NCBI GenBank assembly: GCA_023246355.1
Contig: JAHFIQ010000001.1
Span: forward strand, 145,887 to 209,886
Direction: 5' to 3'
Length of the DNA stretch: 64,000 nt
Source of the DNA: Candidatus Uhrbacteria bacterium
GTDB taxonomy: Bacteria; Patescibacteriota; Patescibacteriia; UBA9934; GWF2-40-263
Shown: positions 3,262 through 29,924 of the stretch, one piece after another
Position numbering within the stretch: position 1 is the stretch's first letter
How the letters are laid out: the number at the start of each line of letters is the position of its first letter
Translations under genes and position numbers: made by a program
Notes under the pieces: generated by a model
Told to the model about the DNA's origin: nothing
Database searches by the model: none
Seen by the model: only the letters and a program-made list of their open reading frames with translations

Positions 3262-3362
3262 ACGTACTTCTTGTCCTCCTGTGAATGTTGGCTTGGTGAG
3301 GGACATGTCGGATCAAAAACGTGTTTTGAGGCGGCATGTCCCTCACCAGAGCCAACGTACTG

Positions 3363-4244: not shown

Positions 4245-4262
4245 ATGCGGAGTCGCTCGCCA

Positions 4263-6318: not shown

Positions 6319-7629
6319 TTACTTTTCTCCTCTGAACAAAAGCTGAACGGTTTTGAGAAGAATCAGGAAATCAAGAACCAACGATCGGTTTTTTATATAG
6401 TACAAATCGTATTCGAATTTTTTTTGAGAGTCCGTGACAGAACGAGCATAGCGAAATTTAATTTGCGCCCAACCGGTGAATCCTGGTTTTACAAAATGAC
6501 GAACACGATAATGGGGAATCTCTCGCTCAAGCGTTTCCACAAACATCGGTCGCTCTGGTCTTGGTCCGACCAAACTCAACTCCCCTTTCAACACATTCAA
6601 CATCTGCGGCAGCTCATCCAAGTGACTCTTACGCAACAGGTTGCCCACCCGTGTCACACGATCATCGTTCTTTGTCGCCCACTGCGCTCCACTCGCTTCC
6701 GCATCTGCTCTCATGGTACGAAACTTTTTAATCAAAAACGGCTGACGATTTTTCCCAACACGTTCCTGTGTGTAAAAAATAGCTCCGCCTTCCATCTTGA
6801 TCAAAAGGGCGATGAACATCCACAGCGGCAAGGTAAGAAGCAACAGACACGCCGCGACCGACACATCAAAGACACGCTTCAAACGATGCGAGAGACCTTG
6901 ATTGCGCTCCTGAACATGACGAATGAACCACGCGTGATCGATCGTGGAGAGTGGAATTCTCCGTGCGAATAATTCATAGGCTTGGGCGAGATCCAAGAAG
7001 GTCACACCCGTTCCAAGACACGCATAGAGTGATTGAAGGTGGTCACCTTGAGACAAAAATGCGTTAGGAACAATAACCACATCGAGATGATGTCGTTGGA
7101 TCTGACTCACAAGATCCTCTCCTGATGATGTGAGAGACACAGACTCATATCCATGATGCTTCAATGACTGGATAATTTCTGCTAACTCCCCCTCTTGATC
7201 TTGGAGATCCAACAGACCAATCCGCCAAGGAACAAGAGAGGAGATCTTCAGCGAGAATACCAAGCGCCACAGGTACGCGAACAAGCCAAACAGCAGGACG
7301 TGGATAAGGAGGTTCGTCTTAGGACTCAAATCTGTGAGTGTCGTTGCATAGAAAAACAAAACCCCTGTCCCAAACAGCATCACCACTGCAACGCCAAAAC
7401 GCGCCATAAACGACGTTGAGGTCGGCGGCAGAGAGAGGTCGTAGAGATCCATCACATAAAAAACCGCGAGCCAAACCAGATACAGAAAAGAGAACGGGAC
7501 GGCGTGAGCCAAAAAACGCTCTGTATCAACCTGCCCCCAGAACCCAATAAAAAGAGCCAACCACAATGTCCCGTAGAGTAATGCTACGTCTCCTGTTAGG
7601 AGAGCCATTTTCCGAAAAATGAAGCCCAT
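6319..7629 (-). CDS. Undecaprenyl-phosphate sugar phosphotransferase (bacterial sugar transferase, WbaP/WcaJ-like)
   Basis: N-terminal TM segments. The C-terminal catalytic domain reads KRVFDVSVAACLLLLTLPLWMFIALLIKMEGGAIFYTQERVGKNRQPFLIKKFRTM...LDELPQMLNVLKGELSLVGPRPERP...KPGFTGWAQI. Confidence 0.8.
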   Translation of the reverse strand: MGFIFRKMALLTGDVALLYGTLWLALFIGFWGQVDTERFLAHAVPFSFLYLVWLAVFYVMDLYDLSLPPTSTSFMARFGVAVVMLFGTGVLFFYATTLTDLSPKTNLLIHVLLFGLFAYLWRLVFSLKISSLVPWRIGLLDLQDQEGELAEIIQSLKHHGYESVSLTSSGEDLVSQIQRHHLDVVIVPNAFLSQGDHLQSLYACLGTGVTFLDLAQAYELFARRIPLSTIDHAWFIRHVQERNQGLSHRLKRVFDVSVAACLLLLTLPLWMFIALLIKMEGGAIFYTQERVGKNRQPFLIKKFRTMRADAEASGAQWATKNDDRVTRVGNLLRKSHLDELPQMLNVLKGELSLVGPRPERPMFVETLEREIPHYRVRHFVKPGFTGWAQIKFRYARSVTDSQKKFEYDLYYIKNRSLVLDFLILLKTVQLLFRGEK

Positions 7630-7635
7630 ACTACA

Positions 7636-9669
7636 ATGCCGTTATCATACACTATGGCTATACAAACAGAATCCTCTCTGAACCGATTCCTCCTGACAGC
7701 AACAAGAGTCGGAATGTTCTCCACCTTGCTCACTCCCCTGCTGTACTGGAGCAAGCTCATGTTCCTTCAAAACTCAACCAAAACATACTTCATCTACATC
7801 ATGAGTGAAATTACGCTTGTGCTCTTTCTCTGGCTCATCGCAAGAGCGCCAGAGTGGCGGCCGCGTATCACGCTGACCACGAAACTTTTCTTTCTCTACA
7901 TCCTGATCCTTGTCCTTGCATCCTTGCTGGGCGTTGATCCATCTTATTCTTTCTGGGGGAGTTTGGATCGGATGGGAGGAATCCTGACATGGCTGCATCT
8001 CACTGCTGTGTTTGTGGTTCTCACAAGCTTGATGCGCACACAAGAAGATTGGGTAAAATTTTTTTCCTTCTCGACTGCGGTTGCCGTCATGATCGCTTTT
8101 ATCCATCTCTTCTCCTTGGGTGGAACGGCGCTCATACCTGAAGCCCGAGGCGGAGCGACCCTGGGCAACTCTTCTTTCTTGGCTGTGTACTTGCTCTTCC
8201 ACACCTTTTTTTCGCTCTTTCTCGCCTCACAACAAAAAAAGAAAGAACGGCTCTACACCTGGCTGAGCGTCTGTGCCTTCTTTGCTCTGACTCTTTCCAG
8301 CGTAAGCGCCGTGGCCGTTCATTTCAGTTTGATCGGTGGAATGGTCCTGCTTTCCATTCTCCTGCTTATCGTCCATGGACGCTCCAAAACAAAAAAACAG
8401 CTTGGGATCGTTCTGCTCGTCCTCTTGTCGATCGTCTTTCTGACCACAACGATTCTGGCCTTCTTGCCTGAGAGCTCTGTGCATCAAAAATTTATCGACC
8501 TTTCCTCTGGGTCGCGATTTGCCCTTTGGGATAGTGCTTGGCAGGGCATCAAAGAAAAACCCTTGTTTGGCTGGGGCTTGGAAAACTTCGGCGTCGTAGC
8601 CCTGACGCACTACAACCCCTGCTTTGGATCTCAGGCGTGTGGGTTTGAAATGTGGTTTGACCATGCACACAATAAACTTCTGGACGTTTGGATTGAGTCC
8701 GGCATTCTGGGACTCCTGCTCTATCTTGGAATTTGGATATCCAGCATTCGCGAGCTGTGGCTGGCGCGACAAAAAAAGAACATCACAGGAACCACATTCG
8801 CCATTTTCAGCGCTTTGCTCGCCGCCTACTTTGTCCAAAACCTGACCGTCTTGGATACGATCACGAGTCTCTTGTTGTGGATCATGGTTCTCGCATTTTC
8901 AAATTCTCAAGAAGAGCCAGCCGTAAAAAAATCACGACCCTTGCCCCTGGCCATCCCGACGATCGCAACGATGTTCCTTCCCTTCGCCTTCTTTTTTTTC
9001 GTGATACAGCCCCTGCGCGGCAACCTGGGATTTGAACATGTGCTGAACGCCACAGATCTAGACACTCGGCTTGAAGCCTACGAACGCGCCACCACCCTCT
9101 CCCCTCTTGGCATTGACATGCGTCGGATTTTTCTCGGCGACCAAACGTCCAGCACCTACTGGAAAATCCCGGTCGAGACATTGAGGAGCATCGAGCCTCA
9201 AGCCCGCCTAGAGCTCGGACTCGCTCAAGCTGGTCTCATGGACAGTCTCGGTCACAAGAATCAAGAATTGCGAGCCCACATCGCTCTGGGAATCATGTAT
9301 CAAACTGAGGGACACTTTTTTGATCCTGCGGCCTTTGAGAAAGCCGAAGAAATTTTACTCAAAGCGATTGAACTCTATCCGCTGATCCCTCAACCTAAAT
9401 GGACCTTGGCGGGTGTGTACCTAGACGAAGGAAAATTGGATGAAGCGCTTGCCATGACTCAGTCTGTCTTAGATGCTTCACCTCTTTCACCCCAGGCTTA
9501 CAACTATCAACTCATTGTCCTTAAATGGATGGACGATACTGATGCCTTTGAAAAACTTGCCGCTCAGGCACTTCAGCTCATCCCTAATCTTCAATCAGAC
9601 ATCGACCAACTCACCGCGGTCGACCTGCAAACACGCTCCCAAGAAGTTCTGACCTCATTCCACCGTTAG
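7636..9669 (+). CDS. O-antigen ligase (Wzy_C) family polytopic membrane protein with C-terminal TPR repeats
   Basis: Multiple TM helices. The core reads HAHNKLLDVWIESGILGLLLYLGIWISS. The C-terminal ~250 aa are TPR-like (LGIMYQTEGHFFDPAAFEKAEEILLKAIELYP). Confidence 0.7.
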   Translation: MPLSYTMAIQTESSLNRFLLTATRVGMFSTLLTPLLYWSKLMFLQNSTKTYFIYIMSEITLVLFLWLIARAPEWRPRITLTTKLFFLYILILVLASLLGVDPSYSFWGSLDRMGGILTWLHLTAVFVVLTSLMRTQEDWVKFFSFSTAVAVMIAFIHLFSLGGTALIPEARGGATLGNSSFLAVYLLFHTFFSLFLASQQKKKERLYTWLSVCAFFALTLSSVSAVAVHFSLIGGMVLLSILLLIVHGRSKTKKQLGIVLLVLLSIVFLTTTILAFLPESSVHQKFIDLSSGSRFALWDSAWQGIKEKPLFGWGLENFGVVALTHYNPCFGSQACGFEMWFDHAHNKLLDVWIESGILGLLLYLGIWISSIRELWLARQKKNITGTTFAIFSALLAAYFVQNLTVLDTITSLLLWIMVLAFSNSQEEPAVKKSRPLPLAIPTIATMFLPFAFFFFVIQPLRGNLGFEHVLNATDLDTRLEAYERATTLSPLGIDMRRIFLGDQTSSTYWKIPVETLRSIEPQARLELGLAQAGLMDSLGHKNQELRAHIALGIMYQTEGHFFDPAAFEKAEEILLKAIELYPLIPQPKWTLAGVYLDEGKLDEALAMTQSVLDASPLSPQAYNYQLIVLKWMDDTDAFEKLAAQALQLIPNLQSDIDQLTAVDLQTRSQEVLTSFHR

Positions 9670-11642
9670 TAGAGTTCAAAAATAAGCTGGGCTCGCTTCT
9701 GGTTCACGTCCGCGTTAGAGATGAGACGTATTTGATCTTCCAAGCTTGAGGAAAGCGCATAGGCTTCATTGGCATAGCGCAAAAACAACTCCTGATCACC
9801 CAAAAACTTTACAGCGATCAAACGTTGAATCTGTGATTCAAGAACTGAGGGATCGAGATCAACAGCGGCCTGTGTAAGAGCTACCGCCTCTTCAATTCGA
9901 CTTTGATCAAGAAACACAGCGGCGAGCGCCCAGAGGGGGTGAGGATTGCGTGGATTCAGGTCAATCGCTTTTTTCAGCACTGTTTCTGCATCCTGAAATT
10001 TTGCCGAATTGAAAAATCTCGCCTCTGTGTGATAGAGCAGGCCTAAATGCAACAACGCAATAAGATCATTGGGTGCTCTGGAGGTCGTATCAACGAGGGC
10101 GGTTTCTGAGAGACTGAGCTCTGCGAGGAACTCCGTATTATCCTGGGAAGGATCCGAGAGCATGTCTTTCCAGACCTTTCCCGCTGTTTGACGAGCCAAG
10201 TACCACCGACGCATATCGATGCCAAGTAGAGACCCGTTCACAGCTCGCTCATACAAACTCAATCGTTCCTGGGAGGTTTGAGCCAAGAGAACCTGATCAA
10301 CCGCAAGGTTCCCAAGCACAGGTTGAATCACGGAAAAAAATAGCCCGAAAGGAAGGACGACCGTCGCGACCATTGGAAACCAAACAGGGACAGGCTTGAT
10401 TGGTGAGTGAGCCGACTCCCCTAACCCAGCATATGAAAGCAAGAGGATCCAGAAAAGAAGTGTCACGCCATCATCAAAGCCGGTAAGATTCTGAACAAGA
10501 GAGCCGGCCAAGGCACAAATCACGATCAGAGGAATCACGCCTGAGAAACGACTACGCCACAAGGTCCACAACGTGAGGGCGAAAATACTGAGATAAGAAA
10601 AAAGTCCCATCAATCCTGATGCAACAAGCACGTCAAGAATGATGTTATGAGCACGGTCATACCAAACCTCAATCCCGCAAGGAAGTGACCCAAGACAGGA
10701 ATCATAATGCTGAAAAAACGCTGTCTGAAAATTCTCGAGTCCCCATCCCAACCAGGGGTGTTCTTGCAATGCTTGCCACGCAATATTCCACACAACAAAT
10801 CGCCCACCGTTTGACCTGGAAACAAACGTTTCACGAATCCAACTCGTAGGGTCAGCAAGAGACAGCAGAGCAACAAGAAAACTCAATCCAAGAATGCCCA
10901 GCATACACCAACCGATCTGTTGTATCCCTCTGGTCTTTCCCTTGACGATCAAAAACAAGGAGAGGAACAACACGAGACTCCCCAAAAACGCACCAATGGA
11001 GGCCTGTGCCGTTGAAAGGAAAAGAGCGAGGATGAGGACAGCCGTAGCGATGGCGCTCATCACCCGCAATCGGCCAACGGATTGAGTAGCCAACACGAGA
11101 CTAAAACAAATTTGAAACAGCAGATAGGCACCAAAAAACGTTGAGTTTCCAATCGTTGAACCTGAGTGAGTGGATGAGAGGAGATCAATACCTGCGAAAG
11201 AAAACAGATGCACAGTAGAAACAAGAACCCCAACGATCGTTGAAAGAAGAAAGAATGGTTTCCAATCTTGTGCGGTGCGAAAAACGGAGGAGACGACAAA
11301 AAAAATCAGAACAAGATGGATCCAAAGCAACACGCCAGCCATGCGATCAAGACTCCCCCAAAAACTCAGGACCGGATCACTGCCAAAAAATGCAGAGAGA
11401 GAAAGGACGAGGAGGAATACAACGAGGGCTTTCCCTACACGGTTCGCTCGATACCCGATGGGAGGATGCAAAAAAAGAGACCACACAAAAAAAACGAAAA
11501 TACATTCGCTCACTCCCATGATGAAAAATGTCTTCGTTGACTCAAAATAATACTGCAACGGAGTCCAAAAAAAGAGCGGTGTAAACGCAAGGGCATAAAT
11601 CCCTAAACGAACGAGACGAAGTGAAACAGGCTCTTCTTTCAT
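9666..11642 (-). CDS. O-antigen ligase family + TPR membrane protein (paralog of 7636..9669)
   Basis: RAHNIILDVLVASGLMGLFSYLSIF aligns with the paralog. The C-terminus is TPR-like. The track ORF starts at 11807 but would overlap the divergent gene at 11698. I trimmed the start to M at 11642 (MKEEPVSLRLVRLGIYALAFTPLFFW), which aligns with the paralog N-terminus. M at 11681 is an alternative. The two paralogs overlap tail-to-tail by 4 bp. Confidence 0.65.
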   Translation of the reverse strand: MKEEPVSLRLVRLGIYALAFTPLFFWTPLQYYFESTKTFFIMGVSECIFVFFVWSLFLHPPIGYRANRVGKALVVFLLVLSLSAFFGSDPVLSFWGSLDRMAGVLLWIHLVLIFFVVSSVFRTAQDWKPFFLLSTIVGVLVSTVHLFSFAGIDLLSSTHSGSTIGNSTFFGAYLLFQICFSLVLATQSVGRLRVMSAIATAVLILALFLSTAQASIGAFLGSLVLFLSLFLIVKGKTRGIQQIGWCMLGILGLSFLVALLSLADPTSWIRETFVSRSNGGRFVVWNIAWQALQEHPWLGWGLENFQTAFFQHYDSCLGSLPCGIEVWYDRAHNIILDVLVASGLMGLFSYLSIFALTLWTLWRSRFSGVIPLIVICALAGSLVQNLTGFDDGVTLLFWILLLSYAGLGESAHSPIKPVPVWFPMVATVVLPFGLFFSVIQPVLGNLAVDQVLLAQTSQERLSLYERAVNGSLLGIDMRRWYLARQTAGKVWKDMLSDPSQDNTEFLAELSLSETALVDTTSRAPNDLIALLHLGLLYHTEARFFNSAKFQDAETVLKKAIDLNPRNPHPLWALAAVFLDQSRIEEAVALTQAAVDLDPSVLESQIQRLIAVKFLGDQELFLRYANEAYALSSSLEDQIRLISNADVNQKRAQLIFELY

Positions 11643-11697
11643 AGGATGTATTTGCAAATTGTGTGCCTTTTTTGAAAACATGTAAAATACGGCCGCT

Positions 11698-12660
11698 ATG
11701 CAAAAGAACGTCATTCTCGTCACCGGCGGAGCTGGATTTATTGGTTGCCATGTCGCCAAACGACTTATCGAGCTAGGACACGACGTTGTCATTGTCGACA
11801 ACTTCAATCCTTACTACGATCCATCCTTGAAAGAGGCAAGGATCGCCACACTGCTCAAAGACCTGCCTTTCACTCTGTACAGAAATGACATTCAGGACGA
11901 GCACGCGATGCGGAAAATTTTTGACAGGCACAAACCCAATCTCCTCTGTCACCAAGCAGCCCAAGCTGGTGTGCGCTATGCCACTCAAGATCCTTTTGCC
12001 TACGGACAGTCAAATCTGATGGGCACGCTCACTCTCTTGGAACTGGCTCGAGAGTTTCAGGTACAAGGCATTGTGATGGCTTCAAGCTCGTCAGTCTATG
12101 GCGACGCCGCACACTATCCAGTCAAAGAAACGGACGTGACCGACCAGCCAATCTCTCTCTACGCGGCTACGAAGCGATCCTGCGAGCTCATCGCCTACTC
12201 CTATCATCACCTCTACAACCTTCCTATCACTTGTCTACGCTATTTCACTGTGTATGGTCCTTGGGGACGTCCAGATATGGCGATCTTCTCTTTTACGAAA
12301 GCGGCCATCGAAGGAAAACCGATCAATGTCTACGGTCAAGGCGAAATGGCTCGGGACTTCACCTACATCGATGATATCGTGGATGGTGTCATCAAGGCTC
12401 TTCAAGTGAATCTTCCATGGGCTGTGTTAAACCTCGGTCGTGGAAACGCAGAACCACTCATGCACATGATTCAACTTGTGGAACAAGCGACGGGCGAACA
12501 TCTTGAAAAACGATTCCTCGATATGCAACCAGGAGACGTGAAACAAACGTTTGCGGATGCGAGCCTTGCGAAAGAACGCCTCTCCTGGGAGCCTCACACA
12601 CGCCTGGATGAGGGAGTCGCCGCGTTCGTTGCGTGGTACAAAAAGTACTATGGAGCATAA
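11698..12660 (+). CDS. NAD-dependent nucleotide-sugar epimerase (SDR; UDP-glucuronate/UDP-glucose 4-epimerase-like)
   Basis: VLVTGGAGFIGCHVAKRL is a Rossmann motif. YAATKRSCE is the catalytic Y-x-x-x-K. DNFNPYYDPSLKEAR is typical of the UDP-GlcA 4-epimerase group. Confidence 0.8.
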   Translation: MQKNVILVTGGAGFIGCHVAKRLIELGHDVVIVDNFNPYYDPSLKEARIATLLKDLPFTLYRNDIQDEHAMRKIFDRHKPNLLCHQAAQAGVRYATQDPFAYGQSNLMGTLTLLELAREFQVQGIVMASSSSVYGDAAHYPVKETDVTDQPISLYAATKRSCELIAYSYHHLYNLPITCLRYFTVYGPWGRPDMAIFSFTKAAIEGKPINVYGQGEMARDFTYIDDIVDGVIKALQVNLPWAVLNLGRGNAEPLMHMIQLVEQATGEHLEKRFLDMQPGDVKQTFADASLAKERLSWEPHTRLDEGVAAFVAWYKKYYGA

Positions 12661-14558: not shown

Positions 14559-15188
14559 ATGTTCCCCATTTTTGTTCGAGCTGCACTCGTCCTCCATAAC
14601 GGGAGTTACAAACTTGCAAGTAAACTTGCAATCAAGGCAGAAGGTGGTTTGCATCCCAAACACCGGCTGATGAACTACCATCAGTTTTTTCTGGACCACA
14701 TTGCATCAACTGATCGCGTCTTGGATATTGGCTGTGGCAACGGAGCTCTAGCGTATGATCTGGCAAAAAAAGCGGAGTCTGTCGTGGGAGTGGATCTCAA
14801 TCCAAAGCATGAGTCTGCCTGGCATGGAAGGTTTGCTGCTCCAAATCTCACCTGTCGCGTCGGCGATGCGACAACACTTAGTACAACGGAAACCTTCGAC
14901 GTCGTCATTCTTTCAAATGTCCTTGAGCACATAGAACACCGCGTCGACTTTTTGAAACGCATCAGGCATCTTGCTCCTCTTTTTCTTCTTCGTGTCCCGA
15001 TGATTGACCGTGATTGGATCACGCTGTACAAAAAAGAACTGGGGATCGAGTACAGACTCGATCAGACACACGTTGTCGAATACACGTTAGAAGGGTTTCT
15101 CCAGGAACTTGAGGACGCTGGACTCGTGTTACAATCGTGGTCCATTCAGTTCGGCGAAATCTGGGCTGTCGTCGACTCACCCTCATGA
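14559..15188 (+). CDS. Class I SAM-dependent methyltransferase (Methyltransf_11/23-like)
   Basis: VLDIGCGNGALAYDLAKKAESVVGVDLNP and FDVVILSNVLEHIEH. Confidence 0.65.
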   Translation: MFPIFVRAALVLHNGSYKLASKLAIKAEGGLHPKHRLMNYHQFFLDHIASTDRVLDIGCGNGALAYDLAKKAESVVGVDLNPKHESAWHGRFAAPNLTCRVGDATTLSTTETFDVVILSNVLEHIEHRVDFLKRIRHLAPLFLLRVPMIDRDWITLYKKELGIEYRLDQTHVVEYTLEGFLQELEDAGLVLQSWSIQFGEIWAVVDSPS

Positions 15189-16255
15189 TGATCAACCGAA
15201 TCCTCTCCCAAATCAAAAGCACCATCGGCAACCTCACCGCCTCGATACGCGGGTTCGATTTGGCATACGTTGTTGAAGGTCACGACTGGTCGATCAAGCA
15301 TGATGGTCAATCGATCACCAAAGCTCTCAACCAACAACAGCTGTTACACGCCCGTACAACATTCACCTCTGTTGGCTTACGTAACCAAATGGTGCATTTC
15401 GGTTCGGTCAATACCTTTTTTACAAAAAAAGGCTGGCATGAACCTCACGCATCAAATCGTGTCATCCTTACATGGTTTCACGTGATAGACGGCGACCCGC
15501 GCATCAACCTTCTCGTTCCCATTCAACACCAGCTCCACGCCATCCATACGTCATGCGAACAAACCAAACGAACACTCACAGATGCCGGAATTGACGAAAA
15601 CAAAATCATCGTCATTCCCCTGGGGGTCGACGTTTCTCTTTTCACTCCCGGGACACCCGAGCAAAAACGAAACGCACGTGAACGATTAGGAATAGCTGCT
15701 GATCGGCTTGTGATCGGATCGTTTCAAAAAGACGGTATCGGATGGGGCGAAGGAGTGGAACCAAAACTGATCAAGGGACCTGACAGCCTTGTAGAAACTC
15801 TCGTCCGCCTCAAGGCGAACAATCCACTTGTTCTTCTGACGGGCCCGGCTCGGGGATACGTCAAACGCGAACTGACCAAACACAGAATTGACTACATCCA
15901 TACCTACCTTCAAGATACAAAAAACCTGCCAGCCATGTACCATGCACTCGACCTCTATCTCATCACTTCACGATTGGAAGGAGGACCGAAATCCCTCTTA
16001 GAAGCATGGGCAAGCGGTGTGCCAGTCGTATCAACACGTGTGGGGATGGTTCCAGACATCGCGATTCATGAACAAACAGTGCTCTTCACTGACGCCGAAG
16101 ATGTTGACGGTCTGGCACAGCTGTCACACAGACTCATGACCGATCAGACTCTCTCTGATCGTCTCGCCCGTCAGGCCCTCATCGTCGTACAGGACCATTC
16201 CTGGGACAAGATCGCTCGCCGGTATGTTGATGAGCTCTACCGTCCCCTGCTATGA
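15185..16255 (+). CDS. GT4 family glycosyltransferase
   Basis: The start is trimmed to MMINRIL, giving an ATGA overlap. The C-terminus reads RLEGGPKSLLEAWASGVPVVSTRVGMVPDI. Confidence 0.7.
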   Translation: MMINRILSQIKSTIGNLTASIRGFDLAYVVEGHDWSIKHDGQSITKALNQQQLLHARTTFTSVGLRNQMVHFGSVNTFFTKKGWHEPHASNRVILTWFHVIDGDPRINLLVPIQHQLHAIHTSCEQTKRTLTDAGIDENKIIVIPLGVDVSLFTPGTPEQKRNARERLGIAADRLVIGSFQKDGIGWGEGVEPKLIKGPDSLVETLVRLKANNPLVLLTGPARGYVKRELTKHRIDYIHTYLQDTKNLPAMYHALDLYLITSRLEGGPKSLLEAWASGVPVVSTRVGMVPDIAIHEQTVLFTDAEDVDGLAQLSHRLMTDQTLSDRLARQALIVVQDHSWDKIARRYVDELYRPLL

Positions 16256-19098
16256 AAATTCACATCCTTCATCCTCTTCGCGATGAACCTTGGGGTGGTG
16301 GAAACCAATTCCTTAAGGCGCTTAAAGCCGAGTGGACACGGCAAGGTGTTTTGAGCCTCACGGCTGAGGAGGCAGATGTGATTCTCATCAACAGTTATCC
16401 GTTTGGTGAGGAACACCTCTTTGATACCTTGTGGCGGATCAAAAAAATGCACCCAGAAAAAATCGTGGTCTACCGATTGGACGGCCCCATTTCTTTTATT
16501 CGACAAAATGATACAGAGGTTGATCGCATCATCCGTACGTGGAATCATCTCATTGCTGATGGAATCATTTTTCAGTCCTCTTGGTGTGAAGAAAAAAATA
16601 GAGAGACGTTTCAAATTTCCTCTGCCTATCAGTCCGTCATCCACAATGCTCCGGATCCAACGATCTTCTATCCAAGTCAAAAGAACCATCTACCCAGCCA
16701 ACGCATCAAACTGATCGCGACAAGCTGGTCCGCCAACCTGCGCAAGGGATTTGATCTCTATACCTATCTCGACCAGAACCTCGACTTCTCTCGGTATGAA
16801 ATGACGTTCGTTGGTAATTCCCCGGTCAAATTTACTCACATCAAAATGATCGAACCCCTTTGCTCACAGGATCTGGCCTCTCTTTTAAGAACACAGGATC
16901 TCTTCATCACCGCATCAAAATCTGATCCTTGCTCGAACTCTCTTATTGAAGCTCTTTCCTGCGGACTCCCAGCCGTAGCCATCAATGATGGTGGACACCC
17001 AGAACTGATCCGACATGGCGGAGAACTTTTCAAGGATACTCAAGACGTCCTGGAAAAAATTGATCGCGTTGCCAATGCCTATGCTTCCTACCGAGCACAA
17101 CTTCCCGTGTTTGATATTTCCACAGTGGCACACCGCTACTTCGACTTCTGCGAAAATCTCTGGCTGGAAACACAAAAAAAGCGATACACCCCTAAACAGA
17201 CTCGTCCTGTCGGCTTGATCAAACTCAAAGGGCAAATCCTTACGTGGACCATAAAAAAGAACCTTGGAGCGATTCGAAAAAAAACGCATTCTTTTCTTCG
17301 CTTCTCGCCTATGCCCCAGCAACGTCTTCCACATCTCATTCGGGTGATCTCTACGGGTTTCCGCGACTATCGAAAGGCGCTCATCATTCTCACGCTTCTG
17401 GGCTTCCTCGGAAGTCTGTTCGAAATTATCGGTATCAATGCTCTCATTCCTCTCCTGAGCTTTGTCCTCAAAGAAACATCGAATGAGATGAATCTCATTA
17501 CGGAGACGACCCAGCGGGTCTTTTCATTCTTCCACGTCAGTTTTGGCATCCAAGCGCTTCTCATTTTTATTTCCCTGCTCTTCATTTCTAAAGCGGCTGT
17601 CCTCCTTTTCTTTCAATACGTGCACATTCACGTCATTACGGATTATGAAAGCCAAGAGCGAAGCAGGTTGCTAAAAAAAATGCTCACGGCTGAGTGGTCC
17701 TTTCTCTCCACGCGAAAAATGGGATACCTAGACCAGGTCATCACACAGGATATTACCTGCGCCACCTACGTACTCAGAGATGTAGGTCGACTTATCCTCA
17801 TCCTCACCAACCTTCTCATCTATACAATCGTTGCCCTCACGATTTCACCAACGATCACCCTGATGACCCTCGTAACTGGAACCCTGTTCTTTTTCGGCTT
17901 TAAACCCTTGTTTAAAAAAACATCCAACACAGCACGAGCGTTTACCAACGACAGCAAACGTGTCTCGCATTTTATCAATCAAATTCTCCTTGGATTTAAA
18001 TCCATCAAAACCCAAGCCACGCTGTCTTTGGTTGTCAGTCAGGGCGAACAGCTATTCAGTCTTCTGAAAAAATCCCGTGTGAACCTCTACCTGTACTCGG
18101 GACTTGGCGGCATTATCGGTGAACCCATGATCATGATCTTTCTGCTACTCATGTTTGCTGTCTCTTACTCCTTACCGAACTTCAACTTTGGTGTTTTCAC
18201 CGTCACGCTCTATCTGATGCATAAAATGTTCAACTACGTACAAAGTGCCCAAGGAAAATTCCAAACCATCAGCGAATACCTTCCACATCTGGAAAGTAGC
18301 ATTCAACATCTTGCCGATGCACAGCAACATCAAGAACAGAAGGAGGGAACCCAACCCTTTACATTTCAGCACACCCTTGAATTTCAAGGTGTTGGATTCA
18401 AATACCAGGATCATCAGGACGTCCTAACGAACATTCAATTCAGAATACACAAGGGAGAAATGATTGGCCTCATTGGACCTTCAGGTTCAGGGAAAACAAC
18501 GATTATTGATCTGCTGTTGCGTCTCCTCGAACCCACGACTGGTTCAATTCTGATGGATGACAAACCTCTCAAAACGATGGCGTTAGACGCCTGGAGAAAA
18601 AACATCGGGTACGTCCCTCAAGATCTTTTTTTGTTAAACGAGTCCATTAAGGAAAACATTCGTTTTTTTGATGAAAGGATCACGGATCAGGACATACAAA
18701 ATGCCGCGACTGCTTCCCATCTTGACGAGTTTCTTAAGAACGAGCCCAATGGACTTGAGACACAGGTAGGTGAACGTGGCATCCACCTATCGGTAGGACA
18801 GCGACAACGCATCGTTCTTGCAAGAGCCCTTGTGAGAAAACCAGAAATTCTCATCCTTGATGAAGCCACCAGTGCTCTTGATCACGCGTCCGAAGAAGCC
18901 GTACAACGCACCCTGAAAAAACTCAAGGGACACATGACGATCATTCTCATTGCTCATCGACCATCAACCCTGCTGGATGTCGACCGCCTTGTGACCATCG
19001 CTCATGGCGTGACGACTGAATGTGGTACTCCAACGGATCTGCTCAATAACCCGTCCTCCTATTTTTCTCAGATGCACCATCCTCAACGGGCATCGTGA
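16252..19098 (+). CDS. Fusion protein: N-terminal GT-B glycosyltransferase domain + complete ABC exporter half-transporter (6-TM MsbA-like TMD + NBD)
   Basis: aa 1-330 are GT-like (SKSDPCSNSLIEALSCGLPAVAINDGGHPELI). aa 350-650 hold hydrophobic ABC_membrane helices. The NBD has Walker A GPSGSGKTT, the signature LSVGQRQR, Walker B ILILDEATSALD and the H-loop IAHR. The start has an ATGA overlap with the upstream stop. Confidence 0.75.
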   Translation: MKIHILHPLRDEPWGGGNQFLKALKAEWTRQGVLSLTAEEADVILINSYPFGEEHLFDTLWRIKKMHPEKIVVYRLDGPISFIRQNDTEVDRIIRTWNHLIADGIIFQSSWCEEKNRETFQISSAYQSVIHNAPDPTIFYPSQKNHLPSQRIKLIATSWSANLRKGFDLYTYLDQNLDFSRYEMTFVGNSPVKFTHIKMIEPLCSQDLASLLRTQDLFITASKSDPCSNSLIEALSCGLPAVAINDGGHPELIRHGGELFKDTQDVLEKIDRVANAYASYRAQLPVFDISTVAHRYFDFCENLWLETQKKRYTPKQTRPVGLIKLKGQILTWTIKKNLGAIRKKTHSFLRFSPMPQQRLPHLIRVISTGFRDYRKALIILTLLGFLGSLFEIIGINALIPLLSFVLKETSNEMNLITETTQRVFSFFHVSFGIQALLIFISLLFISKAAVLLFFQYVHIHVITDYESQERSRLLKKMLTAEWSFLSTRKMGYLDQVITQDITCATYVLRDVGRLILILTNLLIYTIVALTISPTITLMTLVTGTLFFFGFKPLFKKTSNTARAFTNDSKRVSHFINQILLGFKSIKTQATLSLVVSQGEQLFSLLKKSRVNLYLYSGLGGIIGEPMIMIFLLLMFAVSYSLPNFNFGVFTVTLYLMHKMFNYVQSAQGKFQTISEYLPHLESSIQHLADAQQHQEQKEGTQPFTFQHTLEFQGVGFKYQDHQDVLTNIQFRIHKGEMIGLIGPSGSGKTTIIDLLLRLLEPTTGSILMDDKPLKTMALDAWRKNIGYVPQDLFLLNESIKENIRFFDERITDQDIQNAATASHLDEFLKNEPNGLETQVGERGIHLSVGQRQRIVLARALVRKPEILILDEATSALDHASEEAVQRTLKKLKGHMTIILIAHRPSTLLDVDRLVTIAHGVTTECGTPTDLLNNPSSYFSQMHHPQRAS

Positions 19099-20237
19099 AC
19101 TCCCCTATGGTCTTGCTCTATTTATTCGCAAACGCAAAAGCCAGACAACAACCAACCAGTGGCAAGACTCCTTCTTCACAACGATTTTCCTTCTACGGGC
19201 TGGACGCGTTTTCACTGTCTAGCGAACATACGGTCTTAGACACACTCAACGACGAAGCTGCCTTGGAAACACACAGACGTGGAAAAATCATCGACGCCCT
19301 CTGCAATGGGATCCTGCATTACGTGGGTGGATCAGGTGGATCTTGGTACAAGCTCTGGCGCATGCGTAAGGCTATGAGCCAGTCTGATACGGTTGTTGCT
19401 ACCGCAGATCGGGTGGGAATACCTCTTGTTCTGCTTTCCTATTTTCATCTCATCCCCAAACGTCGAATAGTGTATGTGAGTATTGGATTACCAGAAAGAC
19501 TGCAAACCCTTAAACCTTTTTTTCGGCGTCTGTATCTCAACGCATTCCACCATGTGACCGATGAGGTCATCTGCTACGGCCACAAAGAACATCTGTTACT
19601 TCAACACGATCTTGGCCTACAAAAACCCAGGGTTTGGTTTGTGCCCTTTGGCGTGGACACGAACACCCTCATACCACAGGACCCCTCCACAGGACAGACG
19701 ATTGTCTGTGTTGGCGCTGATCCTCATAGGGACTTCCATTCACTCTTCATCCTGGCTGAGCGGCATCCGATGACCCCTTTCTTGGTCATCACCTCACGTG
19801 CACATCAACGGAAATGGAAGAGACTCAAGGTATCGATTCCAACCAACGTCACGCTCCAGTACGATCTTCCCTTTGTTGAAACGATGGAGGCAGTATCCCA
19901 ATCCAAATTTGTTGTACTCCCGGTGTTTGAAAATTCGTATTCCGGAGCAACCACAACCCTCTTGCAAGCGATGGCATTAGGAAAAGCCGTCATTGTGACC
20001 AAGACGGGTGCCATCGCAGATGGCTATCATCTTGCACACGAACAGAATGTTCTTTTCGTGCCACCAGAAGATATCGAGGCTTTAGATGTTGCCTTTACAC
20101 GCCTCTCAACGGACCCAGCATTGAGAATGGCACTGGGGGCAGCTGCCAGAGAAACCGTTGCGCGACATCTGAACTGGCAGAGGTATTCACATCAGATGTA
20201 TTCGATCATTACAGGGCATCAAACGTCTCCTCATTGA
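19095..20237 (+). CDS. Glycosyltransferase (GT-B, GT4/GT1-like)
   Basis: The C-terminal region reads VLPVFENSYSGATTTLLQAMALGKAVIVTKTGAIADGY. The GTG start overlaps the upstream TGA. ATG at 19107 is an alternative start. Confidence 0.55.
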   Translation: MNSPMVLLYLFANAKARQQPTSGKTPSSQRFSFYGLDAFSLSSEHTVLDTLNDEAALETHRRGKIIDALCNGILHYVGGSGGSWYKLWRMRKAMSQSDTVVATADRVGIPLVLLSYFHLIPKRRIVYVSIGLPERLQTLKPFFRRLYLNAFHHVTDEVICYGHKEHLLLQHDLGLQKPRVWFVPFGVDTNTLIPQDPSTGQTIVCVGADPHRDFHSLFILAERHPMTPFLVITSRAHQRKWKRLKVSIPTNVTLQYDLPFVETMEAVSQSKFVVLPVFENSYSGATTTLLQAMALGKAVIVTKTGAIADGYHLAHEQNVLFVPPEDIEALDVAFTRLSTDPALRMALGAAARETVARHLNWQRYSHQMYSIITGHQTSPH

Positions 20238-20284
20238 CCTCTCCACACGTCTGTGAAAACATGCAGACACGTTGGTATTTCTCT

Positions 20285-21358
20285 ATGCAACACATCGCTC
20301 TTATTGGCTGCGGAAGAGTCGCCTCACATATCGCACAATTTTTGGAACAGGGAATGCGCGGCGTTCAGGTCATACACGTTTGTGACATCGTCACCGAACG
20401 AGCAGATGCCATGGCCTTGCGGCTTGGGACTCACGCCGTCTATGACATGAGTGAGGTGTTACAAAACCCCGACGTGACGACGGTTTTGATTCTCACTGAA
20501 TCAGGAAATCATGGAACCCACGCACGTGAAGCCTTGCTTGCTGGCAAACATGTGATCGTTGAAAAGCCGATCGGATTAATTCCTGATGAGGTCATCGAAA
20601 ACGAACGCATCGCGAGAGAGAAAAACCTCCTGTATGCCGCCATCAAACAAAACAGATTTAATCCCGCGATCGAGCAATTAAAAAAAACATCTGACGCAGG
20701 ACGCTTTGGAAAACTGGTCCTTGGAAGTATTCGACTGATCTGGTGCAGACCGCAAGCCTACTACGAGGATGGCTGGCACGGCACCTGGGCCATGGACGGA
20801 GGGGTTATCAGCCAACAAGCCATCCATCATATCGATGCTCTCCAATGGATCTGTGGTCCAATCACCGAGGTTGTGAGCGCACAAACAAATGCGTTGAACC
20901 GCCTGGAAGCTGAGGACACAACCGTGGCTCTTGTTCGATTCCAAAACGGAGGGCTTGGAACGATTGAGGCAACAACCGCCGCACGGCCGACGGATAAAGA
21001 AGCATCGATCACGATCGTTGGAGAAAAAGGCATGGCACAGATTGGTGGCGTGGCACTAAACAACATCACCCAATGGGAATTTACAGAACCACACCCAGAG
21101 GATCAAAACACACAGAAGCACTACTCACAAGAAGTTCCAAATGGATATGGTCTTTCACACGGACCCCTCCTCCAGGAAATCTTCGACCGTCTCAACCGGG
21201 GAAACATCATCCCCCCCATTACGGCATTGGATGCGCTATCGAGCGTACGGATCGTTCACGCCCTGTACAAAAGCGCCGAGGAACATCGCTGGGTAACGGT
21301 GGATGAACAGGTCCGTTCTGCGCGTTTGGGAAATCCATCCACGCGAGCAACTGTATGA
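20285..21358 (+). CDS. Gfo/Idh/MocA family NAD(P)-dependent sugar oxidoreductase
   Basis: The start is trimmed to MQHIALIGCGRVASHIA (dinucleotide-binding N-terminus). LLAGKHVIVEKPIGLIPDE is the EKP motif. The C-terminal alpha/beta dimerisation domain is present. Confidence 0.75.
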   Translation: MQHIALIGCGRVASHIAQFLEQGMRGVQVIHVCDIVTERADAMALRLGTHAVYDMSEVLQNPDVTTVLILTESGNHGTHAREALLAGKHVIVEKPIGLIPDEVIENERIAREKNLLYAAIKQNRFNPAIEQLKKTSDAGRFGKLVLGSIRLIWCRPQAYYEDGWHGTWAMDGGVISQQAIHHIDALQWICGPITEVVSAQTNALNRLEAEDTTVALVRFQNGGLGTIEATTAARPTDKEASITIVGEKGMAQIGGVALNNITQWEFTEPHPEDQNTQKHYSQEVPNGYGLSHGPLLQEIFDRLNRGNIIPPITALDALSSVRIVHALYKSAEEHRWVTVDEQVRSARLGNPSTRATV

Positions 21359-22269
21359 CCAGTCCTCTGCTCAACGCTGTCGACAATGGCGCCGCTTTGA
21401 ATCTGGGTGATTCCCTGTATTACGCCGCCATCCTCGGAACACACCCTTCCAAAGGAGCTCGCTCCCCGGTTTTATGGAATGCGGCTTTCAAAAACCTTGG
21501 AATCGACGCGCAGATGCATCCCATGGATGTCACGGCTGAAAACCTTCCGTTCGTTATAGACGAACTGAAAAAAGACCCTCGATTCATCGGAGGCGCCGTC
21601 ACCACCCCCCACAAACAAACCATCAGTTCACTGTTGGACGCACTCGAGGAAGAGGCCGAACTCATCGGCGCAGTAAATGCTCTCTATCGCAAGGATGGAA
21701 AACTCGTGGGAGCAAATACTGATGGTGCAGCAGCCCTGAAAAGTTTAGAAGCACACGCGGGTTCCATCCATGGAAAGACCGTTCTTCTCCTGGGTCTGGG
21801 AGGAGCCGGACGAGCCGTTGGGATCTATCTTGCCCGAGCGATCGGCAAAGAAGGCAAGCTGCTGCTCAGCAACCGAACGATCGACGTCGCCCAAAACGTC
21901 CAAGAAAAAACAGCATCATTTTGTCCCACAACGGTGATTCCTTGGCCTGTGGATGCGATAACCCTCTCACAATCTGATATCCTCATAAACGCCACAACCA
22001 TTGGCTTTGCAGGATCGGGGCAAGAGGATTTCTCTCCCATTGATGCCACTCTGATGCTGTCGCTTAGGCCAACCTCATTCGTCTTTGACCTCATCTATCA
22101 ACCCTTGGAGAGTCCTTTGCTGCGGCTTGCGCGGACGCGAGGGGCACAAACAATCAACGGCAAAGAGATGAACCTCGAGCAAGCCATCATTGCCTTTGAA
22201 AAAGCTGCTCGTGGAGTGGGGCAACAAGTTCCCGAAGGTTCGGTAAAGCCTCTCATGCAATCCGTTTAA
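21355..22269 (+). CDS. Shikimate/quinate 5-dehydrogenase (AroE) family reductase
   Basis: GTHPSKGARSPVLWNAAF matches G-x-P-x-x-HS-x-SP-x-x-HN. VTTPHK carries the catalytic Lys. NTDG carries the catalytic Asp. LGLGGAGRAVGIYL is a Rossmann motif. NRT and INATTIG are present. The start has an ATGA overlap. Confidence 0.7.
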   Translation: MTSPLLNAVDNGAALNLGDSLYYAAILGTHPSKGARSPVLWNAAFKNLGIDAQMHPMDVTAENLPFVIDELKKDPRFIGGAVTTPHKQTISSLLDALEEEAELIGAVNALYRKDGKLVGANTDGAAALKSLEAHAGSIHGKTVLLLGLGGAGRAVGIYLARAIGKEGKLLLSNRTIDVAQNVQEKTASFCPTTVIPWPVDAITLSQSDILINATTIGFAGSGQEDFSPIDATLMLSLRPTSFVFDLIYQPLESPLLRLARTRGAQTINGKEMNLEQAIIAFEKAARGVGQQVPEGSVKPLMQSV

Positions 22270-22278
22270 CATTTTTCT

Positions 22279-23205
22279 ATGAAAGACATTAGTGAAACCG
22301 ATCTCAAAAATAACCTTCCACTCTCCTGCAAACCTGGAATGAAGATTCCTGTGCACGTAGGCAACACCCAGGTGGGTGGCGAGGGACTCACGATCATGGC
22401 AGGACCGTGCACGGTGGAGAGTCGTGAACAAGTTTTCTCAATCGCGAAGGCTGTGAAAAATGCCGGAGCGACGATTCTTCGTGGGGGCGTCTTCAAACCT
22501 CTCACCTTCCCTTACGGAGACCCACTCTTACTCGCCGACGCTGGGACAGACGGAGAAAACCTTCCTCGCACACACATTCTTTCCAAACAAGAAACCCTTG
22601 AACGGGCAGAGCGCCGATTCAGGTATTTTGCTGAGGCAGGAAAATCCGTTGGACTCCCAATTGTTTCAGAAGCAATTGTGGCGGATGCGATTGAGATGAT
22701 GGAGCCATATGTGGACATGTTCCAAGTCGGCTATCGATCCATGTTCAACATGGACTTGCTCTATCGCTTATGCAAAACCGAAAAGCCCGTGCTCTTGAAA
22801 CGTCATGCGGGAGAATCGATCCGAAGCCTTTTGGGAGTGGTCGAACATTTCTATGCACGTGGAAAAACAAACCTCGTGGTCTGTGAGCGTGGCGTTGCTG
22901 TCCCACACACGCACAATAGTGCTTCTCGCGCCATCCTGGATATCCAAGCGATTGTCGCTCTGAATGAATACGCCCCTACCATTCCGGTGATCGCTGATCC
23001 AAGCCACTCCACGTTTAAACGGTCGTACGTTCAAGCGATGAGCCGCGCGGCGATAGCCGCTGGAGCCGACGGTCTTCTGATCGATGTCCATCCTGATCCA
23101 GAACACGCTTGGGTCGATCCGCTCCAAGCGCTCAATTTTGATCAGTTTGGCGAACTCATGAAGGATGTACGATCCATCGCTCTCACGGTCGGCAGAACTC
23201 TATGA
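22279..23205 (+). CDS. DAHP synthase type I-beta / KDO8P synthase family PEP-aldolase with a divergent phosphate-binding motif
   Basis: [50 protein letters not shown] and [40 protein letters not shown] align closely with type I-beta DAHPS / KdsA. The canonical KPRTSPYSFQG motif is [10 protein letters not shown] here. Confidence 0.7.
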
Positions 23206-24611: not shown

Positions 24612-25309
24612 ACCCGCCAAACATTGTCGCCATTGTCCCTGCCAGAGGTGGATCAAAAGGGCTTCCAAAAAAAAATCTGCAACTTCTCAATGGACATCCG
24701 TTGATCACCTATGCGATTGCTGCGGCAAAACGCTGTGAACGAATCGCGCGCGTAATCGTCGCAACAGACGATCAAACAATTGCTGATGTTGCCGTACGCT
24801 CTGGAGCAGAGGTTCCCTTCTTGTTGCCACAGGATCTCGTCCAAGACCATACACGTTTGGAAGACACGTTTGCCTATGTCACGCAGTGGCTGCTCAAACA
24901 AGATCCTACGATTGAGTACATCTGCTTTGTTGATCCCACGCGACCTGTTCGACCACCTCATTTCTTGAATGATGCCCTGGGAGCTCTTCTTGAGAGTGGC
25001 CAGGATTCCGTCATCAGCGGAGTACACGAACATAAGTCGGTCTGGAAAAAAACAGATGCTCGGCTTGAACGGCTGGATAGTGGATTTACTGTTCGGCAAC
25101 TCAAGCCTGACCAGATCTACGTGTGCTATAGCGGCCTAATCACATGCACGAAAGCCTCGTTCATGGCAAAGGGAGAACGTCTGGGTCCCACTGTTCTTAT
25201 CTGGGAATTCGATGACCACAACATGACCGTCGACGTTCACACCAAGGACGACCTGCGTTTAGCCGAGCTGATTCTCAACGAGTGGCGTGACCGCTATGTG
25301 ATACCGTAG
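24608..25309 (+). CDS. CMP-sugar cytidylyltransferase (acylneuraminate cytidylyltransferase NeuA/PseF family)
   Basis: VAIVPARGGSKGLPKKNLQLLNGHPLITYAIAAAKRCERIARVIVATDD is the CTP_transf_3 P-loop. ATGA overlap. Confidence 0.75.
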   Translation: MNPPNIVAIVPARGGSKGLPKKNLQLLNGHPLITYAIAAAKRCERIARVIVATDDQTIADVAVRSGAEVPFLLPQDLVQDHTRLEDTFAYVTQWLLKQDPTIEYICFVDPTRPVRPPHFLNDALGALLESGQDSVISGVHEHKSVWKKTDARLERLDSGFTVRQLKPDQIYVCYSGLITCTKASFMAKGERLGPTVLIWEFDDHNMTVDVHTKDDLRLAELILNEWRDRYVIP

Positions 25310-28835: not shown

Positions 28836-29924
28836 ATGCCCTCCGAGTGGTTGAACAATCTTCGCACACACCTCTTGCTCTTTCTTGAACAACAAAGAGA
28901 TGAAACCATCCCTGGATATTTTCGTTATGCGTTCTCTGGTGATGTCTTTCAAAATAAAAATCGATCAAACCTCGCCGGAAGTATCTTTGCGCTCAAGCTG
29001 TACCACATGCTCAACATGCACCAAGCGGCACCCACGCATTCGGCCATTGAACGCATTCTGAGCTTCCAAAAGTCAGATGGAACGATCTACGATCCGTTTA
29101 TCTATCGAAAAAGTTTTATAAGAAATCTTCTTTCAAATCTTTCAAAAGCCAAGACACACAACCTTAATAACGATGAATACATTCGAGCGGAAACACGACA
29201 GGCCTACTCTGCCCTTCTTCTGTATGACATCATCCCTGATCATCTATACGCCAACATCCCAACACAACCTGATGCAGTCAAAAAATACATTGACACGCTC
29301 GACTGGAAGCGACCATGGGGAGCTGGAAGCCACGTAAGTCACCTCTTGTTTTTTTTGTCCCTCTTGAGAAAGGCAAAACGGCTAGATGAGACAACGTACA
29401 ACGATGCTCGCGAAATGACTCTGAGCTCTCTCTCTTCTCTTCAGCACAACTCTGATGGCACTTGGTATACCGGCCTTCCATCGCCCAGACAAAAAGTGAA
29501 TGGTGCCATGAAAGTGATCACCGGCCTGCTCATCGACAATGTCCCCTTCACGTATCCTGATCGCTTGATTGATCTGTGTCTGCACACTGACACGCAACAG
29601 ACATCCGATGCGTGTGATCAAATAAATCAAGTACTCGTATTGCGCTACGCAGACGAACAGTGCCAGCACAGTCATCGTCGGGACGAGATATTCACATTCT
29701 GCGAAAAAATCCTCTGGCAATGGCAAGACTATTATCATCAAAACGAAGGAGGTTTTTCCTTTCACAAAAATCGTGCGAATGATCGCTATTACGGTGCAAA
29801 CGTAAGCCGTGGACTGAACGAACCAGACATCCATGGGACGGTTCTGTTTGTCTGGGGACTGAGCCTGATGGCGAAACTGATTCCGCTCCCAGAATTGGAC
29901 TGGCTACAAGAAATGAAAAGTTGA
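28836..29924 (+). CDS. Hypothetical protein with repeated Q/S-x-DG-[TW]-[WFY] motifs (possible alpha/alpha-toroid fold)
   Basis: The motifs are QKSDGTIYDP, WGAGSHVSHLLFFLSLL, HNSDGTWYTG and NEGGFSFH. The spacing resembles prenyltransferase, terpene-cyclase or AGE-type (alpha/alpha)6 repeats. The family is not assigned. Confidence 0.35.
   Translation: MPSEWLNNLRTHLLLFLEQQRDETIPGYFRYAFSGDVFQNKNRSNLAGSIFALKLYHMLNMHQAAPTHSAIERILSFQKSDGTIYDPFIYRKSFIRNLLSNLSKAKTHNLNNDEYIRAETRQAYSALLLYDIIPDHLYANIPTQPDAVKKYIDTLDWKRPWGAGSHVSHLLFFLSLLRKAKRLDETTYNDAREMTLSSLSSLQHNSDGTWYTGLPSPRQKVNGAMKVITGLLIDNVPFTYPDRLIDLCLHTDTQQTSDACDQINQVLVLRYADEQCQHSHRRDEIFTFCEKILWQWQDYYHQNEGGFSFHKNRANDRYYGANVSRGLNEPDIHGTVLFVWGLSLMAKLIPLPELDWLQEMKS

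Follow-up and report, generated by a model that had tools for sequence, protein, structure and literature searches.

PglK of Campylobacter jejuni and Wzk of Helicobacter pylori are type IV ATP-binding cassette (ABC) flippases for undecaprenyl-pyrophosphate-linked glycans, and each operates alongside an initiating transferase, cytoplasmic glycosyltransferases, and, as the enzyme of transfer outside the cytoplasm, PglB or WaaL. Here we describe P0001, a 948-residue protein that joins a glycosyltransferase (GT) to an exporter of this fold class. It is encoded by a single open reading frame (ORF) in a 64,000-nucleotide stretch of a Candidatus Uhrbacteria genome (GenBank assembly GCA_023246355.1, contig JAHFIQ010000001.1, positions 145,887 to 209,886; hereafter the window). 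The ABC half of P0001 has the same half-transporter order as PglK and Wzk, a transmembrane domain (TMD) followed by a nucleotide-binding domain (NBD), and the surrounding genes follow the same pathway logic: a polyprenyl glycosylphosphotransferase (PGT), GT4 and GT2 enzymes, an ABC exporter, and Wzy_C/WaaL-family proteins. However, PglK and Wzk lack the 353-residue N-terminal GT module of P0001, and their hosts are proteobacteria, whereas the window is Patescibacteria-like. Taking all the evidence together, we place at somewhat better than even the chance that P0001 is a genuine in-frame fusion of a GT and an exporter serving a polyprenyl-linked glycan pathway.

Several other systems resemble P0001 in part. 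HepA, of the Anabaena heterocyst envelope polysaccharide system that also includes the PGT HepC and the GT4 enzyme HepE, provides the best NCBIfam model for the ABC half. The GT half in turn counts HepE (4xso/4xsr) among its structural neighbours, and a homolog of the GT module (49% identity) occurs in the heterocystous cyanobacterium Nodularia; unlike in P0001, the cyanobacterial GT and exporter are separate proteins. MsbA, the lipid A-core flippase, shares the exporter fold and is among the top Foldseek matches (TM-score 0.66 normalised to the target), but the glycan cluster in the window contains no lipid A genes, and Patescibacteria are not known to have lipopolysaccharide.

The Wzm/Wzt systems with WbdD or WbbB are conceptually similar, as export is likewise tied to a specific late modification of the lipid-linked glycan and an additional cytoplasmic domain is present on the exporter. 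They are, however, type V exporters, with an ABC-2 membrane protein and a separate NBD, and their extra domain is a binding module where that of P0001 is an enzyme. P0001 is not of the Wzm/Wzt type, as it has no ABC2_membrane match in Pfam and carries TMD and NBD on one chain. Fusions of the MprF/PplT kind follow the same principle, in that a cytoplasmic biosynthetic domain is joined to the protein that translocates its product; examples with GT-B and PplT have been described (bioRxiv 10.1101/2022.03.11.483950). This likeness is one of design only: their translocator is unrelated, being neither ABC nor ATP-driven, and their substrates are phospholipids. Pfam finds no PplT (MprF-type) translocator domain in P0001, in which the membrane domain is ABC_membrane.

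The initial annotation, made without database searches, described a 948-residue ORF with an N-terminal GT-B domain, a six-helix ABC TMD, and a full NBD. An ORF of this length with an ATG start is indeed present (Table 1), and Pfam, motif, hydropathy, and AlphaFold results agree on the three-part architecture. The Pfam domains Glycos_transf_1 (residues 196-275; 41.8 bits against a gathering threshold of 26.4), ABC_membrane (378-660; 29.5 bits against 28), and ABC_tran (725-874; 120.8 bits against 25, E = 8e-35) each score above their own thresholds. The predicted hydrophobic helices are also present, as strong transmembrane (TM) segments by hydropathy and as six long helices in the AlphaFold model.

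Modelled separately with AlphaFold2 (AF2), the GT half forms a confident GT-B fold (pLDDT 89, pTM 0.87) of two Rossmann-like domains, with alternating beta/alpha elements in both. Its closest structural neighbours are the retaining GT4 enzymes BshA, MshA, PglA, WbnH, PimA, and HepE (Foldseek probability 1.0). Sequence identity to these solved enzymes is just 12-20%, so no donor or acceptor specificity is inferable. Motifs in the module include GGGNQF (residues 15-20), K165-G166-F167, and D225-x7-E233, the last, in the C-terminal domain, being a variant of the EX7E (acidic-x7-Glu) motif of GT4 enzymes. All 80 unfused relatives compared carry the Glu of E233, and the first position of the motif is D or E. 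Across the same relatives, 57 positions are at least 90% conserved; the GT half retains 55 of them, including every invariant residue. Pfam score, fold, and motif all place it in the Glycos_transf_1/GT-B group.

The GT half is a typical member of a stand-alone GT4-like family of about 330-370 residues, which we refer to by its GGGNQF motif, and shares 67% identity with an ortholog from Ca. Uhrbacteria. Its basic helix (residues 319-344) is a native tail, present in the stand-alone GTs too, and is probably a membrane-surface anchor. In the stand-alone enzymes this tail ends the protein; in P0001 it leads straight into the ABC exporter. The GGGNQF module (40-49% identical) also occurs fused to a second GT, to S-adenosylmethionine (SAM)-dependent methyltransferases, and to an FkbM methyltransferase (P0015-P0035, L081, L084). 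In Nodularia spumigena, the homolog mentioned above is joined to an unannotated domain of about 400 residues.

Judged from sequence and model, the ABC half is a generic type IV (ABCB-like) half-transporter. Kyte-Doolittle hydropathy identifies strong TM segments at residues 377-395, 436-454, 514-547, and 619-637, whereas the GT and NBD regions have no such segment. An AlphaFold model built from an ABC-rich alignment contains an elbow helix (358-369) followed by helices 371-405, 433-478, 490-527, 535-580, 591-638, and 647-692. Lys and Arg are abundant in the loop ahead of TM1 and scarce in the TM1-TM2 loop, a pattern consistent with an N-terminus, and so a GT domain, on the cytoplasmic side. 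The NBD, confident in the full-length model (pLDDT about 90), carries Walker A GPSGSGKT (742-749), Q790, the signature LSVGQRQR (846-853), Walker B ILILDE (866-871, with E871), the D-loop SALD (874-877), and the H-loop IAH (900-902, with H902). In an alignment with 16 ABC homologs, K748, Q790, E871, D877, and H902 are invariant or nearly so.

The half-transporter is called generic because ABCB1, MsbA, HlyB, and TmrAB match it about equally well in Foldseek. E-values to these and to Atm1 are near 1e-27, with TM-scores of about 0.66 normalised to half-transporter targets, and phmmer matches the ABC half to BmrA at 3e-63. None of the relevant NCBIfam equivalog cut-offs is reached: PglK (NF050066) scores 221.4 bits against 1000, MsbA (TIGR02203) 265.3 against 602, and the HepA family (NF045513), still the top NCBIfam match, 314.4 against 725. 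The ABC half should therefore not be filed under any of the three. The label 'MsbA/PglK-like' in the initial annotation is sound at the level of fold and superfamily, but not at that of the PglK and MsbA families; any assignment as a PglK/Wzk-type exporter would come from operon context only. AF2 also predicts a helix at residues 415-426 in the TM1-TM2 loop, at low pLDDT (53-58). In PglK structures, a short external helix between TM1 and TM2 takes part in flipping of the lipid-linked oligosaccharide.

The full-length model, in which the GT half has low confidence, was built from alignment A2, and the GT model from alignment A1. A combined alignment, A3 (full-length, GT-only, and ABC-only sequences), was dropped because about 80 N-terminal ABC residues were smeared into the GT region.

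Comparison with unfused relatives locates the junction. The Ca. Uhrbacteria metagenome-assembled genome (MAG) L003 (GCA_016219925.1) is syntenic with the window, with neighbouring genes 54-88% identical, and so are two further Ca. Uhrbacteria loci, L008 and L012, and a related contig, L006. This agreement in gene order and sequence itself points to an Uhrbacteria-like member of the Patescibacteria as the most likely source of the window. In the syntenic Ca. Uhrbacteria loci the ABC exporter is a separate protein of 592 residues whose Met1 corresponds to Met354 of P0001. Residue 1 of stand-alone ABC homologs (about 590 residues) aligns there as well, so Met354 is the ancestral exporter start. 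On the other side of the junction, L008, L012, and L006 encode a stand-alone GT of 346-353 residues in the equivalent operon slot. Stand-alone GTs, up to 67% identical, align with P0001 through about residue 340, basic tail included, which leaves only some 6-8 residues (THSFLRFSP) new to the fusion. The tryptic peptide that spans the junction is THSFLRFSPMPQQR.

A run of eight adenines (A8) lies exactly where the similarity to stand-alone GT tails stops. With one adenine fewer (A7), the locus would encode a 364-residue stand-alone GT whose stop overlaps the ABC ATG (17311) by 37 nt. Unfused relatives have this overlapping layout, with 31, 49, or 83 nt shared between the GT and the gene that follows.

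Gene order also differs between the window and its relatives. In L006, L008, and L012 the order is methyltransferase, GT_A, GT module, and a protein that we call protein X (orthologs at L008 6993-8090, L006 6317-7396, and L003 6920-7996). Protein X lies directly 3' of the GT module in the unfused relatives, with an overlap of 31-49 nt, and is a conserved partner of this module. In L003 it stands immediately ahead of the separate ABC exporter. In the window protein X is found further downstream (Table 1), and it is the ABC exporter that follows the GT; movement of protein X would have left the ABC gene behind the GT.

The initial annotation regarded the architecture as uncommon and called for comparison with related genomes, and both points are borne out: the related loci are unfused, and the architecture is extremely rare, as exhaustive and word-based protein searches found a single other example, P0008. 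A phmmer search of 1.84 billion representative proteins gave P0008 as the sole full-length colinear match among the best 150. As P0001 itself is not listed in the output from this library, clustering may hide fused proteins and lead to an under-count. When 5.8 billion clusters were searched by words, the only other fusion retrieved with P0001 was P0008, and vice versa. The exact 948-residue protein was not found in GTDB species-representative genomes.

A profile of the GT module, scanned against 185,579 species-representative genomes, identified 198 loci in Bacteria and Archaea, of which 80 were fetched. A fusion of the module to an ABC exporter occurs in 0 of these 80, while about 76 encode a stand-alone GT. 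Two loci (L048 and L084, both Patescibacteria) have a full-length homologous exporter no more than 6 kb from the GT module, in neither case downstream and in frame. In L084, a Patescibacteria MAG, an ABC exporter of 602 residues is followed by an overlapping 576-residue GT-module protein (1057-4504), in reverse order and in different frames. Five other proteins considered as further fusions, P0236 (947 residues), P0247 (945), P0234 (990), P0229 (986), and P0238 (837), were rejected, as Pfam identifies NBD-TMD-NBD arrangements without a GT domain. Searches of the accessible literature turned up no report of a GT fused to a type IV ABC exporter. The novelty is the combination, both domains being ordinary members of known superfamilies.

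P0008 is a 934-residue protein, 32% identical to and colinear with P0001 over residues 1 to 937, with the same three domains, and is encoded in an unrelated glycan cluster of 27% GC. At its junction (L001, about 11005-11020) an A8 run abuts the ancestral exporter ATG (Met340), and a one-base slip in either direction restores a GT of 342 or 364 residues and two overlapping genes. For each half, dozens of unfused proteins are closer than the other fusion. When ABC halves are ranked by BLAST score among 214 proteins, P0008 is 123rd from P0001 and P0001 is 50th from P0008; for the GT halves, among 231, P0008 is 141st and P0001 73rd.

Because neither half of either protein is the nearest relative of its counterpart, these sequence comparisons indicate that the same families were probably fused twice, independently and in the same order, in P0001 and P0008. 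A single ancient fusion common to both is less parsimonious, given the many unfused proteins closer to each half. The rare residue E12, shared by the two, was also rejected as a sign of common fusion, as it is found in the unfused GT P0215. Two independent fusions are modest evidence for a functional link between the domains.

We propose that the fusion arose in two steps. First, in an Uhrbacteria-like Patescibacteria lineage, a rearrangement would have set the exporter gene directly behind, and overlapping, the GT gene. Second, a +1 slip in the poly-A tract formed by the basic-tail codons would have shifted the GT frame into the exporter frame just before Met354. In 77 stand-alone family members, the density of poly-A runs of at least 6 nt is 1.7-fold higher in the part that codes for the tail than in the part for the catalytic core, and 45% of the members have at least one such run. 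This enrichment is expected from a lysine-rich tail. It suggests that the poly-A-rich tail is a general reason for the many fusion partners of the GT module.

Based on the parts encoded in the operon (a PGT, GTs, modifying enzymes, an ABC exporter, and WaaL/Wzy_C proteins), the GT is most likely, by analogy, a peripheral cytoplasmic enzyme tethered to an exporter that handles a polyprenyl-linked glycan, in a pathway of the Wzk/PglK style. The analogy is to the Wzk/WaaL route of H. pylori (Hug et al. 2010, PMC2841628). The initiating PGT would prime polyprenyl phosphate, and the soluble GTs and methyltransferases of the operon would assemble the glycan at the cytoplasmic side of the membrane. 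Each presumed homodimer would place two tethered GT domains at the membrane surface beside the exporter, where they would add one of the sugars. The ABC dimer would then flip the lipid-linked product, which the Wzy_C-family membrane proteins would transfer or polymerise outside. Tethering would fix a 1:1 stoichiometry and proximity, and might bias export to intermediates bearing the sugar added by this GT. In such a scheme, direct coupling of glycosyl transfer to flipping, as first suggested in the initial annotation, is plausible, with indirect support from P0008 as a second, apparently independent fusion.

Some observations weigh against a functional fusion of this kind. The GT-exporter partnership is not a family trait, since 78 of the 80 GT-module loci have no homologous full-length ABC exporter within 6 kb. 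The many other partners of the GT module suggest that it may fuse with whichever gene comes next simply through its slippery, overlapping 3' end; a slip-prone junction of this type would fuse the GT to any such gene, which weakens the argument for a functional link. As P0001 is one poly-A slip away from the two-gene layout, it may reflect operon adjacency and a slippery junction in place of selection for channelling. In addition, the GT half of the full-length AF2 model is poor, and the model gives no reliable geometry between the domains.

In the strongest rival, the fusion is genomically real but functionally neutral: a poly-A slip would have joined neighbours, with each domain acting as it did before and no channelling or gating, perhaps for a short time. 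We consider it less likely than the functional reading but give it substantial weight. Its basis is the single nucleotide that separates the fused from the two-gene state, a GT family with slip-prone tails and many different partners, and the occurrence of each fusion as a singleton cluster that has not radiated into further fused proteins. A neutral origin is harder to reconcile with two fusions of the same families in the same order when unfused GT-then-ABC adjacency occurs in 0 of the 80 reference loci. The retention of conserved residues in both halves, 55 of 57 in the GT and all catalytic residues in the NBD, also argues against it.

A second rival denies the fused state itself. If A7 (or A9) were the true or dominant form, the locus would encode the 364-residue GT and, by translational coupling from Met354, a 595-residue ABC protein. 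The junction is a homopolymer, which leaves a residual risk of a miscall or minority variant; the A7 form gives exactly the overlap layout of the relatives, and the P0008 junction is in the same situation. Conversely, the exact 948-residue product is called on about 12 contigs of differing lengths from several sources (NCBI, ENA, and Logan assemblies), although this figure counts contigs, not independent samples. P0008 is identical in its ENA and JGI assemblies. The ORF contains 14 homopolymers of at least 6 nt, and the frame stays intact across all the others. Met354 is not preceded by a Shine-Dalgarno-like sequence, although translation might still start internally there. Consensus errors of short reads at an 8-nt run are uncommon.

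The initial annotation had named a frameshift that merges two genes as the finding that would undo the fusion. The multiple contigs and the intact halves speak against such an error, while the A8 run keeps part of the concern alive, as one adenine fewer gives two overlapping genes. Scans of JGI metagenome contigs for A7, A8, and A9 versions of the junctions returned no match for the window and only its own source contig for P0008, and neither result says anything about length variation. Together, the number of contigs, the second fusion, the conserved residues, and the in-frame homopolymers elsewhere argue against a one-off assembly frameshift in P0001. We regard an artefact or minority variant as improbable and hold with considerable confidence that the fused state is the real and dominant genomic state.

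The poly-A tract could also be a slippage switch, acting through DNA phase variation or transcriptional slippage, that evolved twice and yields either a separate GT and exporter or a tethered machine in which export is gated on the sugar added by this GT. We think this doubtful. If true, however, it would represent a built-in completion check for a PglK/Wzk-type flippase. Least probable of all is a GT that makes a glycolipid, of diacylglycerol or another membrane lipid, for the fused ABC exporter to flip outward as an MprF-like synthase and flippase: the lipid-acting GT4 enzyme PimA among the structural neighbours, a basic membrane-surface helix that fits a lipid acceptor, and the synthase-flippase precedents of MprF and the GT-B-PplT fusions (bioRxiv 10.1101/2022.03.11.483950) are outweighed by an operon of the classical polyprenyl phosphate type (a PGT above its cut-off, many GTs, and Wzy_C ligases) and by the position of the GT module among other oligosaccharide-building GTs in relatives.

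Table 1. Features of the GT-ABC fusion gene, its product, and the surrounding glycan cluster; nucleotide positions are those of the window.
Feature	Residues	Position	Strand	Remarks
GT-ABC fusion ORF (P0001)		16252..19098	+	948 aa; ATG start; stop included
GT-B module, GT4-like, retaining-type fold	1-318	16252..17205	+	Pfam, AF2, Foldseek
Basic C-terminal helix of GT module	319-344	17206..17283	+	7 K/R, 0 D/E
A8 homopolymer at junction		17277..17284	+	Codes R342-K343-K344
Met354, ancestral ABC exporter start codon	354	17311..17313	+	Residue 1 of stand-alone homologs aligns here
Type IV ABC exporter TMD	358-692 (about)	17323..18327	+	Elbow helix and six long TM helices
NBD	705-948	18364..19095	+	Pfam, motifs, AF2
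Initiating polyprenyl glycosylphosphotransferase (Bac_transf)		6319..7629	-	5 TM-like segments; Pfam
Wzy_C (O-antigen ligase/polymerase-like) membrane protein		7636..9669	+	About 12 TM segments; Pfam
Second Wzy_C membrane protein		9666..11807	-	C-terminal TPR repeats; Pfam
Upstream GT4 gene (GT_A)		15137..16255	+	Conserved direct upstream neighbour of GT module in L008, L012, L006
Downstream GT1-family gene		19095..20237	+	Ortholog of L003 5787-6923, 41% identity
Protein X		28836..29924	+	362 aa, soluble

The fusion gene lies within the glycan operon, as originally proposed, among packed plus-strand genes and PGT, GT, and Wzy_C surroundings. Its start overlaps the stop of the upstream GT gene by 4 nt, and its stop overlaps the start of the downstream GT gene by the same length. 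The initiating PGT passes TIGR03025 in NCBIfam with 338 bits against a cut-off of 296. The two Wzy_C genes are convergent, with overlapping 3' ends, and their products have 11-12 TM segments each. The plus-strand Wzy_C protein is a candidate for the extracytoplasmic acceptor-transfer step, and the presence of two such proteins in the cluster may reflect separate polymerase and ligase or O-oligosaccharyltransferase roles. Protein X has no sequence match in Pfam, NCBIfam, or the PDB.

The cluster also encodes an epimerase/dehydratase, several GT4 and GT2 enzymes, five SAM-methyltransferases, and a set of enzymes for an activated acidic sugar: a GFO/IDH/MocA oxidoreductase, a shikimate-DH-like protein, a DAHP-synthase-like protein, and a PseF/KdsB-like cytidylyltransferase. 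These four and a GT2 enzyme with an NTP-transferase-like tail form a five-gene block (20234-25309, plus strand) that is kept en bloc in the Ca. Uhrbacteria MAG L003 (9837-14865), at 65-88% identity. The DAHP-synthase-like protein falls short of the cut-offs for both DAHP synthase models (269 bits) and KDO8P synthase (85 bits). A CMP-activated 3-deoxy-ulosonic acid may be the product of the block, made by means of a DAHP-synthase-type aldolase, not KdsA or NeuB.

Just upstream of the glycan cluster are two genes for cohesin-domain proteins (2029-3306 and 4263-6011, both minus strand), one with a PKD-like domain. These may be surface or scaffold proteins and possible targets of glycosylation. 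Elsewhere in the window, a tRNA-Ile with anticodon TAT (UAU) is encoded at 34977-35053 (minus strand). Such a tRNA is uncommon in bacteria, where AUA is usually decoded by a lysidine-modified CAU tRNA. A bacterial class A RNase P RNA at 54746-55192 (minus strand) is a full-length match of 125.8 bits, covering 447 nt against a model of 367 positions.

How cytoplasmic GTs hand finished lipid-linked glycans to flippases of the PglK/Wzk type, and how these discriminate complete from incomplete glycans, is poorly understood. A natural GT-flippase fusion would show which GT family works beside this exporter family, and would be a ready-made single-chain target for cryo-electron microscopy or for reconstitution of the hand-off step. 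Its practical value is limited by the existence of only two examples, both uncultured singletons. The origin by a single slip, encountered twice, in a poly-A stretch that codes for lysine at the tail of the first of two overlapping genes offers a concrete mechanism by which the GT module could have gained its many fusion partners. P0001 and its operon also allow a rare look at how surface glycans are put together in Patescibacteria, a group in which the cell surface mediates an episymbiotic way of life.

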